This document shows positions 1 through 29,697 of a stretch of DNA of 64,000 bases, in pieces. Each line of letters begins with the position of its first letter. Within the stretch, counting starts at the first letter, position 1. The notes beneath the pieces were generated by a model. It was not told where the DNA came from. It saw nothing but the letters and a program-made list of their open reading frames with translations, and made no database searches. Both the position numbers and the translations under genes were made by a program. This DNA is from Escherichia phage JY01. Location: the sequence record OR995200.1; one strand, 5' to 3'.

Positions 1-1836
<1,836 letters not shown>

Positions 1837-1864: not shown

Positions 1865-3844
1865 ATGACTTTATTATCTCCGGGCATTGAGCTCAAAGAA
1901 ACTACGGTTCAAAGCACCGTGGTTAATAACTCTACTGGTACAGCAGCTTTGGCCGGTAAATTCCAGTGGGGTCCTGCTTTTCAGATTAAACAGGTTACAA
2001 ATGAAGTAGATTTAGTTAATACTTTTGGTCAACCAACCGCTGAAACTGCTGACTATTTTATGTCTGCGATGAATTTCTTGCAGTACGGAAATGACTTACG
2101 AGTAGTTCGTGCTGTTGATAGAGATACCGCTAAAAACTCATCGCCAATTGCTGGTAATATTGAATACACAATTTCTACCCCAGGTAGTAACTATGCAGTT
2201 GGAGATAAAATCACGGTCAAATATGTTTCAGATGATATTGAAACTGAAGGTAAAATTACTGAAGTAGACGCAGATGGAAAAATTAAGAAAATTAATATTC
2301 CTACTGCAAAAATTATCGCTAAAGCTAAAGAAGTTGGCGAATACCCAACATTAGGTTCTAACTGGACTGCAGAAATTTCTTCATCTTCTTCCGGTTTAGC
2401 TGCAGTAATAACTCTTGGAAAAATTATTACTGATTCCGGTATTTTATTAGCTGAAATCGAGAGCGCTGAAACTGCTATGACAGCAGTTGATTTTCAGGCA
2501 AATCTTGAAAAATATGGAATTCCAGGAGTAGTAGCTCTCTATCCAGGCGAATTAGGCGATAAAATTGAAATTGAAATCGTATCTAAAGCTGACTATGCGA
2601 AAGGCGCTTCTGCATTACTGCCAATTTATCCAGGTGGTGGTACTCGTGCATCTACTGCCAAGGCAGTATTTGGATATGGACCGCAGACTGACTCACAGTA
2701 CGCTATTATAGTTCGTCGAAATGATGCTATTGTTCAAAGCGTTGTTCTTTCAACTAAGCGTGGTGAAAAAGATATTTACGATAGTAACATCTATATCGAT
2801 GACTTTTTCGCAAAAGGTGGTTCAGAATATATTTTTGCAACTGCACAAAACTGGCCAGAAGGATTCTCTGGAATTTTAACTCTTTCTGGTGGATTATCAT
2901 CAAATGCTGAAGTAACAGCAGGAGATTTGATGGAAGCTTGGGACTTCTTTGCTGATCGCGAATCTGTAGATGTTCAGCTTTTTATTGCTGGTTCTTGTGC
3001 CGGTGAATCTCTTGAAACAGCATCTACTGTCCAAAAACACGTCGTTTCAATTGGTGATGCTCGCCAGGATTGCTTAGTATTGTGCTCACCACCGCGTGAA
3101 ACTGTAGTTGGAATTCCTGTAACCCGTGCTGTTGACAACTTAGTCAATTGGAGAACTGCCGCAGGTTCATATACTGATAATAACTTTAATATTAGTTCAA
3201 CCTACGCAGCAATTGATGGTAACTACAAATATCAGTATGACAAATATAATGATGTGAATCGTTGGGTTCCATTAGCAGCTGATATTGCTGGTTTATGCGC
3301 AAGAACTGATAACGTATCTCAGACTTGGATGTCACCAGCTGGTTATAATCGTGGCCAGATTCTTAACGTTATTAAACTTGCTATTGAAACTCGCCAGGCA
3401 CAACGTGACCGCTTATATCAAGAAGCTATCAACCCAGTAACTGGTACAGGTGGTGATGGTTACGTATTGTATGGTGATAAAACAGCTACTTCTGTTCCTT
3501 CTCCATTTGATCGTATTAACGTTCGTCGTCTGTTTAATATGTTGAAAACGAATATCGGACGTAGTTCAAAATATCGTTTGTTCGAATTAAACAACGCGTT
3601 TACTCGTTCTTCATTCCGTACAGAAACTGCTCAGTACTTGCAAGGAATTAAAGCTCTTGGCGGAATTTATGAATATCGTGTAGTTTGCGATACAACAAAT
3701 AACACTCCGTCAGTAATTGATAGAAATGAGTTTGTTGCAACATTCTACATCCAACCGGCTAGAAGCATTAACTACATTACCTTAAACTTCGTAGCAACTG
3801 CTACTGGTGCAGATTTCGATGAGTTAACTGGTCTTGCTGGTTAA
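1865..3844 (+). CDS. 18: contractile tail sheath protein gp18
   Basis: 659 aa, same length and N-terminus as T4 gp18 as I recall it; late promoter TATAAATA 30 bp upstream. Confidence 0.95.
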   Translation: MTLLSPGIELKETTVQSTVVNNSTGTAALAGKFQWGPAFQIKQVTNEVDLVNTFGQPTAETADYFMSAMNFLQYGNDLRVVRAVDRDTAKNSSPIAGNIEYTISTPGSNYAVGDKITVKYVSDDIETEGKITEVDADGKIKKINIPTAKIIAKAKEVGEYPTLGSNWTAEISSSSSGLAAVITLGKIITDSGILLAEIESAETAMTAVDFQANLEKYGIPGVVALYPGELGDKIEIEIVSKADYAKGASALLPIYPGGGTRASTAKAVFGYGPQTDSQYAIIVRRNDAIVQSVVLSTKRGEKDIYDSNIYIDDFFAKGGSEYIFATAQNWPEGFSGILTLSGGLSSNAEVTAGDLMEAWDFFADRESVDVQLFIAGSCAGESLETASTVQKHVVSIGDARQDCLVLCSPPRETVVGIPVTRAVDNLVNWRTAAGSYTDNNFNISSTYAAIDGNYKYQYDKYNDVNRWVPLAADIAGLCARTDNVSQTWMSPAGYNRGQILNVIKLAIETRQAQRDRLYQEAINPVTGTGGDGYVLYGDKTATSVPSPFDRINVRRLFNMLKTNIGRSSKYRLFELNNAFTRSSFRTETAQYLQGIKALGGIYEYRVVCDTTNNTPSVIDRNEFVATFYIQPARSINYITLNFVATATGADFDELTGLAG

Positions 3845-3860
3845 TACGGTGCATTCTAAA

Positions 3861-3878
3861 GGCCTGTTTCGACAGGCC
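3861..3878 (+). terminator. stem-loop after gene 18 (tetraloop TTCG)
   Basis: GGCCTGT-TTCG-ACAGGCC, 7-bp GC-rich stem. Confidence 0.5.
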
Positions 3879-3879
3879 A

Positions 3880-3887
3880 TATAAATA
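3880..3887 (+). promoter_or_regulatory. late promoter (TATAAATA) upstream of gene 19
   Basis: exact TATAAATA directly after the post-gene-18 hairpin. Confidence 0.6.
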
Positions 3888-3938
3888 CACTATATCCTTA
3901 ATTCTTTAATTCTATATGCCCTAGGTTAAACATAGGGA

Positions 3939-3946
3939 TATAAATA
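3939..3946 (+). promoter_or_regulatory. late promoter (TATAAATA) for gene 19
   Basis: exact TATAAATA 15 bp upstream of the gene 19 ATG. Confidence 0.65.
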
Positions 3947-3960
3947 CTACAGAGGCTAAT

Positions 3961-4452
3961 ATGTTTGTAGATGATGTAACACGAGCGTTTGAATCTGGTG
4001 ATTTTGCTCGACCTAACTTATTCCAAGTAGAAATTTCTTATCTTGGACAAAATTTTACGTTTCAATGTAAAGCCACTGCTTTACCAGCTGGTATTGTAGA
4101 AAAAATTCCAGTCGGATTCATGAACCGTAAAATTAACGTAGCAGGCGATCGTACATTCGATGACTGGACTGTTACAGTAATGAACGATGAGGCACATGAT
4201 GCTCGTCAGAAGTTTGTTGATTGGCAAAGCATTGCTGCTGGTCAAGGAAACGAAATTACTGGTGGAAAACCTGCAGAGTATAAAAAGAGCGCTATCGTTC
4301 GTCAATATGCTCGTGACGCTAAAACAGTAACAAAAGAAATTGAAATTAAAGGTCTATGGCCTACTAACGTGGGCGAACTTCAATTAGATTGGGATTCAAA
4401 CAATGAAATCCAAACATTTGAAGTAACTCTTGCTCTCGATTATTGGGAATAA
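3961..4452 (+). CDS. 19: tail tube protein gp19
   Basis: 163 aa, T4 gp19 length; follows gene 18. Confidence 0.93.
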   Translation: MFVDDVTRAFESGDFARPNLFQVEISYLGQNFTFQCKATALPAGIVEKIPVGFMNRKINVAGDRTFDDWTVTVMNDEAHDARQKFVDWQSIAAGQGNEITGGKPAEYKKSAIVRQYARDAKTVTKEIEIKGLWPTNVGELQLDWDSNNEIQTFEVTLALDYWE

Positions 4453-4457
4453 AATGA

Positions 4458-4475
4458 ATGGGGAGAAATCCCCAT
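4458..4475 (+). terminator. stem-loop after gene 19 (GNRA-type loop GAAA)
   Basis: ATGGGGA-GAAA-TCCCCAT, 6 nt after the gene 19 stop. Confidence 0.45.
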
Positions 4476-4484
4476 CCTGCTTAA

Positions 4485-6109
<1,625 letters not shown>

Positions 6110-6110
<1 letters not shown>

Positions 6111-6346
6111 TGGAAGGTTTAATTGAAGCTATTAAATCAAACGACCTCGTAGCCGCTCGTAAATTATTTGCTGAAGCCATGGCTGCAAGAACGACTGATT
6201 TAATCAAAGAAGAAAAAATCACTATCGCTCGTAATTTCTTAATCGAGGGTGAAGAACCTGATGACGAGGATGACGACGAAGATAGCGATGATGATAAAGA
6301 CGACAAAAAAGACAAAGACTCTGACGATGACGAGGATGATGAATAA
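6110..6346 (+). CDS. 67: prohead core protein gp67 (acidic C-terminus)
   Basis: 78 aa with poly-D/E tail, overlapping gene 20 stop (ATGA-type junction); T4 order 20-67-68-21. Confidence 0.85.
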
Positions 6347-6771
6347 TGATTCTAATCCCTGAAACTCATGAATTAGTTCTCGAGAATGTCGAAGCACTTA
6401 TTCCTGAAGCACAGGGTCGCTTTGACGAGTTGTCTTCTGCTTTAAATAAAGACGATATAAATAAAATTATCGAGAATATGCTTGATGATGAAACTGATTT
6501 AGCGGTTGCATTAGCTTCTATTAATGAAAATATGCCGTTAAATGAATTTATCGTTAAACATGTTTCTGCCCGTGGTGAAATTACTCGCACTAAAGATCGC
6601 AAAACCCGCGAACGTAATGCATTTCAAACTACCGGGTTGTCTAAAGCAAAACGTAGACAAATTGCTCGTAAAGCTACCAAAACGAAGATTGCCAATCCAG
6701 CAGGTCAATCTCGTGCTCAGCGTAAGCGTAAAAAAGCTCTTAAACGCCGTAAAGCATTAGGATTAAGCTAA
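6346..6771 (+). CDS. 68: prohead core protein gp68
   Basis: 141 aa, basic C-terminus; position between 67 and 21. Confidence 0.85.
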
Positions 6772-7409
6772 TGAATGAACCCCAATTGCTAATTGAAACT
6801 TGGGGTCAACCTGGCGAAATTATTGATGGTGTGCCAATGCTTGAATCCCATGATGGGAAAGACTTAGGTTTAAAACCTGGTTTATACATCGAAGGAATAT
6901 TCATGCAAGCAGAAGTCGTCAATAGAAATAAACGTCTTTATCCAAAACGTATATTAGAAAAAGCGGTAAAAGACTATATTAATGAGCAAGTTTTAACTAA
7001 ACAAGCTCTCGGAGAATTAAATCATCCTCCACGCGCTAATGTTGACCCGATGCAAGCCGCTATCATTATAGAAGATATGTGGTGGAAAGGAAATGACGTA
7101 TACGGACGAGCTCGTGTTATTGAAGGTGACCATGGTCCTGGAGATAAATTAGCAGCTAATATTCGTGCCGGATGGATTCCAGGAGTTTCTTCTCGTGGAT
7201 TAGGTTCATTGACTGACACAAATAAAGGTTATCGTATCGTAAACGAAGGATTCAAATTAACTGTAGGTGTTGATGCAGTATGGGGTCCAAGTGCTCCAGA
7301 TGCATGGGTAACTCCTAAGGAAATTACCGAATCACAGACGGCGGAAGCCGATACAAGTGCCGATGACGCCTATATGGCTCTCGCAGAGGCCATGAAAAAA
7401 GCGTTATAA
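6771..7409 (+). CDS. 21: prohead core protease gp21
   Basis: 212 aa, T4 gp21 length and position. Confidence 0.92.
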   Translation: MNEPQLLIETWGQPGEIIDGVPMLESHDGKDLGLKPGLYIEGIFMQAEVVNRNKRLYPKRILEKAVKDYINEQVLTKQALGELNHPPRANVDPMQAAIIIEDMWWKGNDVYGRARVIEGDHGPGDKLAANIRAGWIPGVSSRGLGSLTDTNKGYRIVNEGFKLTVGVDAVWGPSAPDAWVTPKEITESQTAEADTSADDAYMALAEAMKKAL

Positions 7410-25109: not shown

Positions 25110-25113
25110 CAAT

Positions 25114-25131
25114 GGGGACCGAAAGGTCCCC
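25114..25131. terminator. bidirectional terminator between convergent gene 54 and the alt.-3-like ORF
   Basis: GGGGACC-GAAA-GGTCCCC followed by ATATTTTTATTT. Confidence 0.65.
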
Positions 25132-25137
25132 ATATTT

Positions 25138-25486: not shown

Positions 25487-25489
25487 AAC
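25460..25489 (-). promoter_or_regulatory. early (sigma70-type) promoter for the alt.-3-like ORF
   Basis: minus strand: GTTTAC - 18 nt - TATAGT; part of the 54-bp repeat. Confidence 0.55.
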
Positions 25490-27546
25490 TACATTTTGAA
25501 CTTTTTAGACATTCCGTTGATGTTAACCAAAGAAGCTAAGATTTGAGAAACTTCGTTTTCCTCTTCTTTTGATTCTTCTACAAGGAATTGATTAAATCCA
25601 GCCATTGGACGAACTTCACCAGTTTCCATTAGATGGTCGCCATCATATACTGATTCTTCTAATTGTTCAGAAGGAGGAACGATTGTACCTTCGATTAGAT
25701 ACTTGTTATAAGCAGTTTCTTTCATAAAGTAAGTACTTACTTTATTAATCTTCAGTAAAATTCCACGTGGTAGAATAACTTCAGCTTCTGATGGAAATCC
25801 TGACAAATGACCTGGAACGATAACTTTAACTCGTTCAGCTCCTTTAATTACCATACCCACGCTAGTTTCAGCATCTTCATTAGCATATGTAGAATGACTA
25901 CCCATATGCATCAAATCTTCTGCATCAACGGAACCTTCTCCTTCACCAGAAAATACTGCTCCGGAATTATCTAAGGCCATATAATTTTTACCATACTCAC
26001 CAAAGATATTTGGTTTAAGTGATGTCGATACGAAGTTCTTGAAATAGAACATTTTATTTTCAATGTTATGACGCAAAGTTTTAAAAGTAACTTCTTGTCC
26101 ACGGTAAAGTGTAGTTCCTGGAGGAAGAACTGAACCTTTAGCAAACGCAGAATCTAACGTCTCAATATGTTTAATAGCTCGTTCCATATATTCTTCACGG
26201 GTAGAATCTGGTTTACCTAAAAGGAATGAGTTCATTTCAACATATGAATCTGCACAATAATCTTCAATTACATCAGATTCAGCCTGAGTCAATCCTTTTG
26301 GAGTTACTTCAGTGCTTGCATATTCATACGCCTGAGCAGCGGATTCATCAATTAATTTATAAATGCCATTCATGACAAATTGAATAATAGCTGTCTTTTC
26401 ATCTGGCGTAGCTTTAGAACCTTTAACTAAATCATTGACAATTTTCTTAATAACATCAAAGCTATTAGAAATATTAATGTCAGCAAGATCGCTTAAAATT
26501 TTATCAGTTTTATAATCAAAAAATTCTTTATTCTTTAAATATTCTTGAGAACTTTGATATGTTATATCGCTCTGCAACTTGATAGATGGATCACGTAAAC
26601 GTGCATGGGCTAATGCAATATGATTTCGGAAGCTTTCTAGTTCATAATCACTAGATTTAAAACGAGAAGCACTCCTCATACCACCGATAGCTCCTTTGCT
26701 GAAGTTTGAACCAACCTGAATAACGCCAGAGTTCATTGGTCCTTCTGCTTTATATACCGGAACTTTAGATTCAAACTCTTGATATTTCTTAGCAGCAAAG
26801 CTATCACCCTGAAGTGAAGCATCAACAGTAGAATATTGAGCTTGTGCTGCTAATCGACGACTAATTTTAGTTTTCTGAATAACAGCTTGATCCGTACGCT
26901 TATCATTTTCTAAAGCAATAGAAGCAGCAACTGCGACAGCTTTAGGAACAGCATTACCTGTTTTAACGTCTACATAAACATCACCAACCTTTGATTCAAC
27001 TTTTGTGAATAACTCAGTTGAAATAGGAGGTACACCTGGAATGTCTTCTAAATTGGCATTTTTACGGTAAACCATAATATATGCATATTTCTTATCATAG
27101 TCCCAGATTTCCTTTAAAAGAACATATCGACCTGCTCCTTTAGTACGTACTAAACGGTCAGCAATAACTTGCATTTGACGAGCAGCGCCGTTTGTTTTAC
27201 TTTTTAGTACGCGGAATAGGCATGCATCAATTTTATACTGTTTCATTGTTTGAAGAGCAGTATCAAAAACCGCATTAATGACGCCAATTGGATTTCCACC
27301 CAAGTTTTTAAGCTTAACTAACGATAATTTCTCGTTGACGCCTATCATTACGATATGCATCATTTTGTCGCCTGGCTTAACGTTTTTATTCGTATCACCG
27401 CCAGAGGTGTATGTACAAAATCTAAATCCAGGAAGCACGCTTTCTTCACCGGCTTGAATAGCAAAAATTTGTGGTATTTTATGCTTAGGATTTAAGTTAA
27501 CAACCGGCGCCGAAGCGCCGTCAAATAATTCTGTAATAAGTTCCAT
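25489..27546 (-). CDS. Alt-family ADP-ribosyltransferase paralogue (685 aa)
   Basis: N-terminal MELITELFD targeting sequence; C-terminal R / STS / E-x-E triad (YRGQ, FVSTSL, EAEVILPRG); paralogue of the adjacent gene. Confidence 0.8.
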   Translation of the reverse strand: MELITELFDGASAPVVNLNPKHKIPQIFAIQAGEESVLPGFRFCTYTSGGDTNKNVKPGDKMMHIVMIGVNEKLSLVKLKNLGGNPIGVINAVFDTALQTMKQYKIDACLFRVLKSKTNGAARQMQVIADRLVRTKGAGRYVLLKEIWDYDKKYAYIMVYRKNANLEDIPGVPPISTELFTKVESKVGDVYVDVKTGNAVPKAVAVAASIALENDKRTDQAVIQKTKISRRLAAQAQYSTVDASLQGDSFAAKKYQEFESKVPVYKAEGPMNSGVIQVGSNFSKGAIGGMRSASRFKSSDYELESFRNHIALAHARLRDPSIKLQSDITYQSSQEYLKNKEFFDYKTDKILSDLADINISNSFDVIKKIVNDLVKGSKATPDEKTAIIQFVMNGIYKLIDESAAQAYEYASTEVTPKGLTQAESDVIEDYCADSYVEMNSFLLGKPDSTREEYMERAIKHIETLDSAFAKGSVLPPGTTLYRGQEVTFKTLRHNIENKMFYFKNFVSTSLKPNIFGEYGKNYMALDNSGAVFSGEGEGSVDAEDLMHMGSHSTYANEDAETSVGMVIKGAERVKVIVPGHLSGFPSEAEVILPRGILLKINKVSTYFMKETAYNKYLIEGTIVPPSEQLEESVYDGDHLMETGEVRPMAGFNQFLVEESKEEENEVSQILASLVNINGMSKKFKM

Positions 27547-27549
27547 GAT

Positions 27550-29643
27550 TTATCCTTGAACGAACTTGTAAGGCATGTTTGTAATATCTATGCAAGACGC
27601 AATAATTCCAAGAGATGATTCTACTTTCTGTTTAACGTTTGATGAAACAAATGATGCAAAGTCAACTCTGTCTTCTATTTCAATATCACCTGTCATTGCA
27701 ACTACTTCACCGGTTTCCATTAAATGGTCTCCGTCATAGATTACCGATTCGGTGAGCTCTTCCGTGGTCATAACTTCAGCTTGAATGAGTTTTGTATTAT
27801 TAAATGTTGTTCCGTCATTATTAGAAGCATCAGTTATTTTATTAACTTTGACCATCAATCCACGCGGTAGAATAACTTCAGCTTCTGTTGCTATTCCGAG
27901 ACTTCCTGGATATACAACATTAACTTTATGAGCTCCATCAATTGCCCATCCTATTTGAACTTTAACGTATTCAGGATTTTCTTTATACGCTCTTATTTCG
28001 TTTGGATTAATAGTTATTCCTTCTTCATTTTTATCAACTGTTAATTCATTGCGAGCTTCTGGTTCTAAAAGACCAATACCAGCATGTGTGATTCCAAAAC
28101 GTCCAAAAATGATAGGAGTTAAAGAAGTAGATACAAAATTTCTGAAATAGAACACTTTATTTTTAACTAACGCTTCATATATAGGAGCAGTCATACTTTG
28201 AGCACGATAAACTGTAATGCCTTCTGGTATACGGTCACCATTTTCAAAAGCTGAATCTAAGTTATTTATAGCAGATTCAATTTCTTTTTCACTCATTACA
28301 TCATATCGTTCTGGATTGTAACGACCTAAAAGAAGATTATTGATGTCAGTATATCCTGAACCGCAATATTCTCTAATGCCACGCTTTTGTGATGGAGTAT
28401 ATTTAGAACCATCGCGGGCAATAGTAATATCAATCATTGGACCAGCACCAATTCCAGAAAAACTGTAAATCATTCGTTTGAGGAATTTAGTTTTTGCTGC
28501 GTTCCAGGAATTTTTAGTTATTTCTTCCCAGACTTCATCTGGTTGTCCTTTACGATTTTTATTATGATTAGCAAGCCATTTATCTTTATAATCTTCAAAG
28601 AATTGATTTACAGCTGCTGCGTATTTCTCTAAACATTTTATTGAAGTAGTTGGTTCATTTTTAATTGCATTAAAAATTACTTCTTTAATTTTTTCTGAAA
28701 CTTCACCGACTTGACTCATTGGAAAGAATTTATAATCATAGTGAAGTTCATCTGCCGTTCCTTCAGCAATAATTTTTGCTGCCTTTGTTTTAGAAGCTAA
28801 TGAATTAATTCCAATTTTCATTTCTTCTGCTTCGGGAATTAAAGGTGCAGTAGCTGGTTTATTAAAATTAGCTGCTGTAGATTCATACTTCTGGAATAAT
28901 TCACTTTCAAATCTAGAAGATTCCAATGACTGACTTTGTGCAATTGCTCTACGGGAAATTTTAACTTTAACGATTACGGCTTGGTCAGAACGTTTATCAT
29001 TTTCTTGTGCAATAGATGCAGCAATTGCCTCATTTTTGGTTACTTGAGCTCCAGTATCTTTATTGATATAAACATCACCGACCTTCGATTCAACTTTAGT
29101 AAAGAGTTCAGTGCTAATTTCTGGAACTCCTGGAATGTCTTCTAATGATACATTTTTGCGATGTATAAGAATATATGCATACTTTTTATCGTAATCCCAG
29201 AGTTCCTTAAGAAGGACGTATCTGCCACCTGAACGACTGCGGATGAGTCTATCAGCAATAAGTTGAATTTGTCGAGCTTGACCGGCGGTTTTAGACTTAA
29301 GAATACGAAGCATGCAGGCATCAATTTTATATTGACGCATTGTTTGCATTGCAACAGTAAAAACTGAATTGATATAATTAATCGGGCTTGGACCAAGACC
29401 TTTTAATTTAGCAATTGAACCTTTAGCAGTTAATGTAAAAGGAACAATGTGCATCATTTTATCGCCCATCTTTAAATCACGATTAGTATCACCTTCAGAT
29501 GTATAGGTACATAAACGAAAGCCTGGTTGTTCAATTGCATCATCAACATGAACTGAAAAAATTTGTGGTATTTTCTTCTTTGGATTTAAGTTTGTAATCG
29601 GAAGAGTAGTATCTTCGTCAAATAATTCTGTAATAAGTTCCAT
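27550..29643 (-). CDS. alt: Alt ADP-ribosyltransferase (capsid-packaged, injected)
   Basis: 697 aa; MELITELFD N-terminus; YRAQ, FVSTSL, EAEVILPRG motifs; late promoter TATAAATA (minus) upstream; adjacent to DNA ligase as in T4. Confidence 0.85.
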   Translation of the reverse strand: MELITELFDEDTTLPITNLNPKKKIPQIFSVHVDDAIEQPGFRLCTYTSEGDTNRDLKMGDKMMHIVPFTLTAKGSIAKLKGLGPSPINYINSVFTVAMQTMRQYKIDACMLRILKSKTAGQARQIQLIADRLIRSRSGGRYVLLKELWDYDKKYAYILIHRKNVSLEDIPGVPEISTELFTKVESKVGDVYINKDTGAQVTKNEAIAASIAQENDKRSDQAVIVKVKISRRAIAQSQSLESSRFESELFQKYESTAANFNKPATAPLIPEAEEMKIGINSLASKTKAAKIIAEGTADELHYDYKFFPMSQVGEVSEKIKEVIFNAIKNEPTTSIKCLEKYAAAVNQFFEDYKDKWLANHNKNRKGQPDEVWEEITKNSWNAAKTKFLKRMIYSFSGIGAGPMIDITIARDGSKYTPSQKRGIREYCGSGYTDINNLLLGRYNPERYDVMSEKEIESAINNLDSAFENGDRIPEGITVYRAQSMTAPIYEALVKNKVFYFRNFVSTSLTPIIFGRFGITHAGIGLLEPEARNELTVDKNEEGITINPNEIRAYKENPEYVKVQIGWAIDGAHKVNVVYPGSLGIATEAEVILPRGLMVKVNKITDASNNDGTTFNNTKLIQAEVMTTEELTESVIYDGDHLMETGEVVAMTGDIEIEDRVDFASFVSSNVKQKVESSLGIIASCIDITNMPYKFVQG

Positions 29644-29666: not shown

Positions 29667-29674
29667 TATTTATA
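29667..29674 (-). promoter_or_regulatory. late promoter (TATAAATA on minus) for alt
   Basis: plus-strand TATTTATA ~24 bp upstream of the alt start. Confidence 0.6.
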
Positions 29675-29680
29675 AAATTA

Positions 29681-29697
29681 AAGGCCCGAAGGCCTTT
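29681..29697 (-). terminator. stem-loop upstream of the alt late promoter
   Basis: minus strand AAAGGCC-TTCG-GGCCTTT. Confidence 0.5.

Follow-up and report, generated by a model that had tools for sequence, protein, structure and literature searches.

The 64,000-nucleotide stretch of Escherichia phage JY01 (sequence record OR995200.1; hereafter the window) carries on its minus strand two tandem genes for ADP-ribosyltransferases (ARTs) of the family of bacteriophage T4 Alt, namely an ortholog of alt, coding for 697 residues, and a second gene, Alt2, coding for 685 residues (table 1). Alt is the textbook case of a head-carried phage enzyme that is injected to reprogram the host, and nearly all work on it has been done with T4. 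From the comparison of sequences, structural models and published data, the two paralogous genes would both be functional and form one late unit, and Alt2 is probably a second packaged, gp21-processed and injected arginine ART with a substrate range unlike that of Alt. The gene pair itself is already known and is not a new kind of system: it is annotated in hundreds of genomes (alt.-2 in RB32/RB51, 'Alt2' in Bas37), so that the novelty implied by a preliminary description of this DNA was overestimated.

The preliminary description had recognized two adjacent minus-strand open reading frames (ORFs) of 697 and 685 residues, and their coordinates, strand and lengths were found to be exact, as was the start MELITELFD shared by both proteins. 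By BLASTP, Alt and Alt2 are 41% identical (E = 6e-160), with an uneven distribution along the chain (in the alt numbering, 67% over residues 1-238, 22% over residues 239-420, 36% over residues 421-630 and 44% in the C-terminal tail). Thus, the similarity of the first approximately 230 residues is strong, but they are not near-identical as had been stated, only the first 9 residues being the same in both, and the divergence of the middles was borne out. Apart from this overstatement, the observation was upheld, and so was every part of its interpretation that could be tested. Sequence conservation is lowest in the helical centre and between S-T-S and E-x-E, the latter stretch corresponding to the phosphate-nicotinamide/ADP-ribosylating turn-turn (PN/ARTT) region. 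At the nucleotide level, the first 28 nt of the two genes (27519-27546 and 29616-29643) are 100% identical, synonymous sites included, with 70-76% identity in the rest of the DNA coding for the N-terminal domain; a nucleotide-level constraint on translation initiation or on the propeptide, or a local gene conversion, could be at the origin of this identity. The two proteins have a common four-part architecture: a propeptide of 6 residues is followed by a conserved alpha/beta domain at the N-terminus (N-domain), by a helical centre that varies, and by an R-S-E ART domain, after which comes an acidic tail at the C-terminus.

That both proteins are R-S-E ARTs of the Alt family, as initially proposed, can be taken as practically certain. 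Both match the Pfam family ADPrib_exo_Tox (PF03496; E values in table 1), and PHROG 802 ('Alt-like RNA polymerase ADP-ribosyltransferase') spans residues 1-696 of Alt and 1-685 of Alt2, from profile position 2 to 674 of 674. The R / S-T-S / E-x-E triad was found as VYR480AQ, FVS505TS and E587AE589VILPRG in Alt, and as LYR482GQ, FVS507TS and E587AE589VILPRG in Alt2, and alignment leaves it intact in both copies. In a 24-sequence family alignment R482, S507, S509, E587 and E589 (Alt2 numbering) are invariant, with T508 present in at least 90% of the sequences. The family profile places the 'YR' and 'E-x-E..LPRG' motifs on the catalytic Arg and on the Q/E-x-E ARTT motif, respectively, of C3cer (4xsg) and BECa (5h03), and Alt alone aligns likewise to the catalytic residues of CdtA. 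A search of the PDB with the single sequence of Alt2 gave no match, the family profile being needed to reach C3cer, BECa and Certhrax, and no solved structure of any Alt protein was found by sequence search. Length and architecture are also those of the family (N-terminal domain, helical centre, ART domain and acidic tail, approx. 600-710 residues), and the position of the locus, between gene 54 and gene 30, is syntenic with that in T4, T2, CAM-21 and Bas37. Precomputed assignments of homologs list PF26846, an N-terminal family, along with PF03496; PF26846 was not reported by the Pfam scan of the two proteins, and NCBIfam has no model for either of them. A fusion of a MuF (SPP1 gp7-like) domain to the ART domain, as in the MuF-fused head-packaged ARTs (Iyer et al.), was not found.

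The AlphaFold2 model of Alt2 shows a confident ART fold, with Vis, C3, Certhrax and VIP2 as structural matches. The best match, Vis, is an arginine ART, which together with the E-x-E signature may hint at ADP-ribosylation of arginine, although it is only suggestive. By taking into account the conservation of the active-site residues, catalytic competence seems very likely. Alt proteins differ from the arginine-specific R-S-E enzymes Vis, iota Ia/CDTa/BECa and VIP2, and from the Asn-specific C3 exoenzymes, in that their delivery relies on the phage head, without a binding/translocation component; compared with the bacterial toxins, they also contain an additional stretch of high variability between S-T-S and E-x-E, a phage-specific N-domain and the helical centre. 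T4 ModA and ModB are ARTs of the same R-S-E clade (Iyer et al., PMC5512222, PMC9503650), but are described in the literature as small, expressed after infection and unpackaged, without the Alt N-domain or gp21 propeptides; the Mod genes lie outside the window. The N-domain, of which 69 representatives were collected, occupies the N-terminus in every case, and its partner is nearly always an ART domain. The idea that it may be a modular packaging domain carried by many kinds of effectors gave a largely negative outcome, 8 of the 10 distant members carrying PF03496. The two distant carriers without a Pfam ART match are P0183 (485 residues), a degenerate ART in which a '..SEIVLPRG' motif is left, and P0184 (541 residues), the C-terminal region of which is unrelated and which may represent a fusion of the Alt N-domain to another effector.

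The N-termini had been likened in the preliminary description to the leaders of T4 proteins cleaved by the prohead protease, and both proteins indeed carry the ITE-6 gp21 motif of T4 Alt. About 40 copies of the latter are part of the prohead core; after trimming by gp21 they remain in the head and are injected with the DNA (PMC9958956, PMC9026906, PMC5512222). Mass spectrometry demonstrated cleavage at ITE-6, and later also at LTE-619, with the loss of 63 C-terminal residues (PMC5694885), and the cleavage specificity of gp21 is (L/I)-x-E (PMC5694885, PMC9026906). The C-terminal motif is also kept in the window, as LTE-632 in Alt and as LEE-631, which fits the rule, in Alt2, and the E6 and E631 columns are invariant in the 24-sequence alignment. 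The tail of Alt2 after LEE-631 is predicted to be disordered, and the sole long low-confidence segments of its AlphaFold2 model, residues 1-10 and 630-685, coincide with the two predicted propeptides. The T4 internal proteins (IPI-III) are likewise packaged in the head and injected, and gp21 trims them after (L/I)-x-E. Their capsid-targeting sequence (CTS) is a propeptide of 10-20 residues that has been demonstrated to direct foreign proteins into the head, whereas the Alt propeptide is of 6 residues and is only a putative CTS; furthermore, Alt, unlike the IPI-III as they are described, also loses a C-terminal propeptide. The IP genes are outside the window, and the likeness is drawn from their description. 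Docking of the enzyme into the core would, we infer, depend on the conserved N-domain and not on the 6-residue propeptide. On the whole, packaging and injection of Alt2 appear probable from these motifs.

Alt2 corresponds to alt.-2 of RB32/RB51, to the 'ADP-ribosyltransferase Alt2' bas37_0032 of KarlGJung/Bas37 and to the second 'Alt-like RNA polymerase ADP-ribosyltransferase' of T2. These proteins are 98-99% identical to the Alt2 of the window (98.2% for Bas37), and their genes are in the same position with the same 3-nt spacing after alt, so that it is essentially the same gene. An Alt2-specific segment of 1690 nt was found in 401 records, the adjoining gene 54 being found in 499, and Alt2 is intact in about 80% of genus-level phage records, T2 included. 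Not all T-even phages carry the second copy, a point that the preliminary description had left open: T4 retains just alt.-1 (61 residues) and alt.-2 (67 residues), which match the N-terminus of Alt2 and not that of Alt, and which, unlike intact Alt2, lack the ART domain. Their DNA is approximately 95% identical to the first approximately 357 nt of the Alt2 gene of the window, and their PHROGs (23015 and 15247) are matched more strongly by Alt2 than by Alt. The T4 record itself describes them in GenBank as 'an old duplication of the first part of gene alt', and Alt paralogs were noted by Nolan et al. 2006 (PMC1524935). In terms of window positions, T4 keeps 27555-27199, in a frameshifted form, and 25508 onwards, with deletion of the approximately 1.69 kb in between (27198-25509). 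At the junction within the T4 remnant (alt.-1/alt.-2, positions 6066-6451 of the T4 locus L002) the two aligned blocks overlap by 9 nt, which suggests a microhomology-mediated deletion.

Alt2 is under strong purifying selection. Among six phages (the window phage, CAM-21, T2, Sfk20, G4507 and Killian), its pairwise ratio of non-synonymous to synonymous substitution rates (dN/dS) is 0.02-0.07 at dS values up to 0.25, with 0.05-0.14 for alt, and the catalytic and processing motifs are identical in six Alt2 orthologs (the same set with Bas37 in place of CAM-21). In domain trees, the JS10-type 'Alt' proteins (P0011/P0012) group with Alt2 in the centre (42-45% identity to Alt2 and 13-15% to Alt) and in the ART domain (56-57% and 34-36%, respectively). 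Thus, the Alt2 lineage is old rather than a recent copy, and 'Alt' annotations in other genera may correspond to it.

In C3-like and iota-like toxins the PN/ARTT region governs the choice of the substrate. Since it is in the centre and between S-T-S and E-x-E that the two proteins diverge most, different host substrates are the most likely outcome, and we favour, with moderate confidence, distinct targets for Alt and Alt2. Two sets of published observations bear on function. Mokosh type I is countered by the Alt of T4 and not by that of Bas37 (bioRxiv 10.1101/2025.11.20.689424). In the Bas37 transposon library, Alt2 has insertions at 116 of 164 TA sites, with a mean control count of 44.5, and is classed as 'Intermediate', as opposed to 164 of 179 sites, a mean control count of 203.6 and the class 'Non-essential' for Alt (10.1101/2025.11.20.689424 supplement). 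The transposon data are the only functional hint that was found for Alt2.

With these premises, alt and Alt2 would be transcribed late from the TATAAATA motif upstream of alt, which corresponds to the T4 late promoter consensus TATAAATA (Nolan 2006, PMC1524935), and Alt2 would be translated from its own Shine-Dalgarno (SD) sequence, starting 3 nt past the alt stop codon. Neither a promoter nor a terminator was found between alt and Alt2 by reading of the sequence and by scan, and late co-transcription of the two genes from the alt late promoter appears plausible from their arrangement. The hairpin between alt.1 and alt, annotated as a 'putative transcriptional terminator' at the equivalent place in G4507 and KAW1E185 and unlisted in a simple terminator scan, would insulate alt from upstream early transcription. 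A second TATAAATA inside alt (28270-28263, minus strand), approximately 720 nt upstream of the Alt2 start, was considered as a separate late promoter and given no weight, about 0.5 chance matches being expected per strand (a rough estimate from the base composition of the AT-rich 5 kb, made with no shuffle test). Both proteins would then be built into the prohead core, and gp21 would remove the residues up to ITE-6 and those beyond LTE-632 in Alt or LEE-631 in Alt2. The mature enzymes, of approximately 625 residues, would be kept in the head, injected with the DNA, and would mono-ADP-ribosylate arginines of host proteins at the expense of NAD+. Distinct substrates of Alt and Alt2 would broaden host takeover or counter-defence.

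Some observations weigh against this proposal. In the literature that was searched, also for virion proteomics of two-copy phages, no report of packaging, cleavage, injection, activity or targets of Alt2 was found. The localization of proteins to the core has been termed 'mysterious' (PMC9958956), the 6-residue propeptide being only a putative CTS. Alt2 appears to have no late promoter of its own, its expression being deduced from its position. The 'Intermediate' class in the transposon library may reflect a real fitness contribution, and equally the toxicity of truncated products or a technical effect. Finally, T4 lost Alt2 without an obvious laboratory cost, and KAW1E185 manages with one hybrid gene, so that Alt2 is dispensable in some settings.

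That T4 and KAW1E185 do well with one copy, and that architecture, catalytic motifs and processing motifs are common to both proteins, would also be expected if Alt2 were a redundant back-up, packaged and active on the targets of Alt (e.g. Arg265 of the RNA polymerase alpha subunit) and thus raising the injected dose. We consider this unlikely by taking into account that the centre and the ART domain are only 22% and 36% identical, a divergence held by strong purifying selection in each lineage, and that the lineage with an Alt2-type centre and ART domain is old, as indicated by the JS10-type proteins. Furthermore, Alt alleles with a diverged centre are not interchangeable against Mokosh, and the Bas37 transposon library sets Alt apart from Alt2. 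Even less likely is that Alt2 is not an injected effector at all, being made late and acting in the producing cell or as a component of the prohead core. The 'Intermediate' fitness in a laboratory host without special defences fits a role in assembly or late physiology, and no proteomic or biochemical data on Alt2 were found in the literature, but Alt2 keeps both gp21 motifs and the Alt N-domain, as does the only family member for which packaging and injection are known. That Alt2 is a duplicate in decay or without catalytic activity, heading to the T4 state, as the frameshifted and deleted T4 remnant and the absence of the Alt2-specific segment from about 20% of genus-level records might recall, is highly improbable with an ORF intact in 401 records, dN/dS values as low as or lower than those of alt, invariant triad and cleavage glutamates and a confident ART fold in the model, and the dN/dS values rule out a pseudogene.

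T4 Alt (gpAlt, NP_049811; NAD+--arginine ADP-ribosyltransferase) and the 697-residue protein share the locus (between alt.1/gene 30 and gene 54), the architecture, the ITE-6 and LTE motifs and the triad, and they differ in the central cassette, their identity being 99% over residues 1-238, 35% over residues 239-420, 66% in the ART domain (421-630) and 95% in the tail. Alt2 has the same architecture and motifs as T4 Alt, with approximately 42% identity overall and approximately 14% in the centre. In Tequatrovirus alt is dimorphic, with approximately 314 records at least 90% identical to the alt of the window (97.4% between the window and Bas37 proteins) and approximately 212 at 60-80% with a T4-type centre. 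The allele of the window, Bas37 and T2 differs from the T4-type one in the centre and in the ART domain, while the N-domain and the tail stay 95-99% identical, a pattern that looks like cassette exchange by recombination. In phage G4507 a T4-type alt is found together with Alt2.

KAW1E185 (MK373781; positions 2601-4658 of locus L007) contains a single alt gene, of 685 codons, the product of which is 95-100% Alt-like up to approximately residue 600 and 97% Alt2-like thereafter. An unequal crossover between tandem copies near E-x-E is a possible origin of the hybrid, and an assembly artefact is possible as well. The metagenomic proteins P0005 and P0007 join an Alt-like N-domain to an Alt2-like remainder, and these could be assembly chimeras. 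It has been considered, as a tentative and rather doubtful extension, that the alt locus may be a two-slot, recombining effector-cassette system, in which a constant docking N-domain and gp21-cleaved termini accommodate interchangeable 'centre + ART' modules with module-specific targets, selected by different defences. The T4-type Alt, the window-type Alt, Alt2 and the KAW hybrid would be examples of such modules, Alt2 would act as an injected counter-defence enzyme with targets of its own, and the host-range differences between T4 and T2-like phages would be due in part to the loss of Alt2 from T4.

Table 1. Features of the alt/Alt2 locus of the window and of the gp21 gene, with the parts of the two proteins.
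Feature	Residues	Position (nt)	Strand	Basis or remark
alt ortholog	697 aa	27550..29643	-	ORF; PF03496 E 5.6e-37; PHROG 802
alt propeptide	1-6			ITE-6
alt N-domain	7-238
alt variable helical centre	~239-415
alt triad Arg	R480
alt triad S-T-S	S505-T506-S507
alt triad E-x-E	E587-x-E589
alt predicted C-terminal propeptide	after 632			after LTE-632
Alt2 (alt.-2 of RB32/RB51)	685 aa	25489..27546	-	ORF; PF03496 E 7e-20; PHROG 802
Alt2 propeptide	1-6	27546-27529	-
Alt2 N-domain	7-238	27528-26833	-
Alt2 helical centre	239-415	26832-26302	-
Alt2 ART domain	416-625	26301-25672	-
Alt2 triad Arg	R482	26103-26101
Alt2 triad S-T-S	S507-T508-S509	26028-26020
Alt2 triad E-x-E	E587-x-E589	25788-25780
Alt2 predicted C-terminal propeptide	632-685	25653-25492	-	after LEE-631
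Predicted mature Alt2	7-631			N-terminus at L7 (LFDGASAPVVNLNPK), C-terminus ...PPSEQLEE631
Hairpin AAAGGCC-TTCG-GGCCTTT with T-rich tail, between alt.1 and alt		29680..29697	-	read from sequence
T4-type late promoter motif TATAAATA, 24 nt upstream of alt ATG		29667..29674	-	motif search
alt SD GAGAGGA		29654-29648	-	sequence
alt/Alt2 junction		27547..27557	-	SD AAGGA (27557-27553) inside alt end; TAA (27552-27550); 3-nt spacer; Alt2 ATG (27546-27544)
alt.-3 ortholog (DUF5498), downstream neighbour	96 aa	25138..25428	-	PF17602 E 3e-62
alt.1 ortholog, upstream neighbour	61 aa	29700..29885	-	PF24647 'Phage_blade' E 6.8e-28
Sigma-70/T4-early-like promoter TTTACA-17-TATAGT with TG, before alt.-3		25488-25460	-	promoter scan
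Bidirectional terminator hairpin, gene 54/alt.-3		25112..25133	both	terminator scan; annotated in G4507 and KAW1E185
gp21 prohead core serine protease		6771..7409	+	PF03420 Peptidase_S77 E 1.5e-111

Judged from its sequence, the window phage is a T4-like Tequatrovirus: Escherichia virus CAM-21 is 99.1% identical over the 5-kb alt region, which is covered for at least 80% by 368 phage records, nearly all from Tequatrovirus. The gene order, with 29-48-54 on the plus strand followed on the minus strand by alt.-3, Alt2, alt, alt.1 and DNA ligase (gene 30), is that of T4, and the window also codes for the portal protein gp20, the prohead protease gp21, the scaffold protein gp22 and the major capsid protein gp23. 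The bidirectional hairpin between gene 54 and alt.-3 is the predicted end of the leftward alt transcription unit. An Rfam search of the window gave no match. As to the neighbours, the alt.-3 C-terminus is extended in T4 mutants that escape the CmdTAC defence (PMC11618068), and the alt.-3 ortholog is depleted in the Bas37 transposon comparison (experimental file '37_CFT'; log2 fold change, -2.70; adjusted p, 0.02). The alt.1 ortholog is labelled as a single-stranded DNA binding protein in one related record.

The pair is already annotated and the T4 remnant has long been recognized, and no functional study of the role of Alt2 was found in the literature. The present comparison indicates that it is T4 that is atypical, about 80% of the genus carrying another intact enzyme of the Alt type, which has been lost from T4. 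The differences between Alt alleles with respect to Mokosh, together with the fewer insertions in Alt2 in the transposon library, suggest that the locus is a hotspot of the arms race with the host. If Alt2 is indeed injected and acts on substrates of its own, the picture of early host takeover that has been derived from T4 would leave a part out for most T-even phages, among them T2 and many isolates used in therapy.

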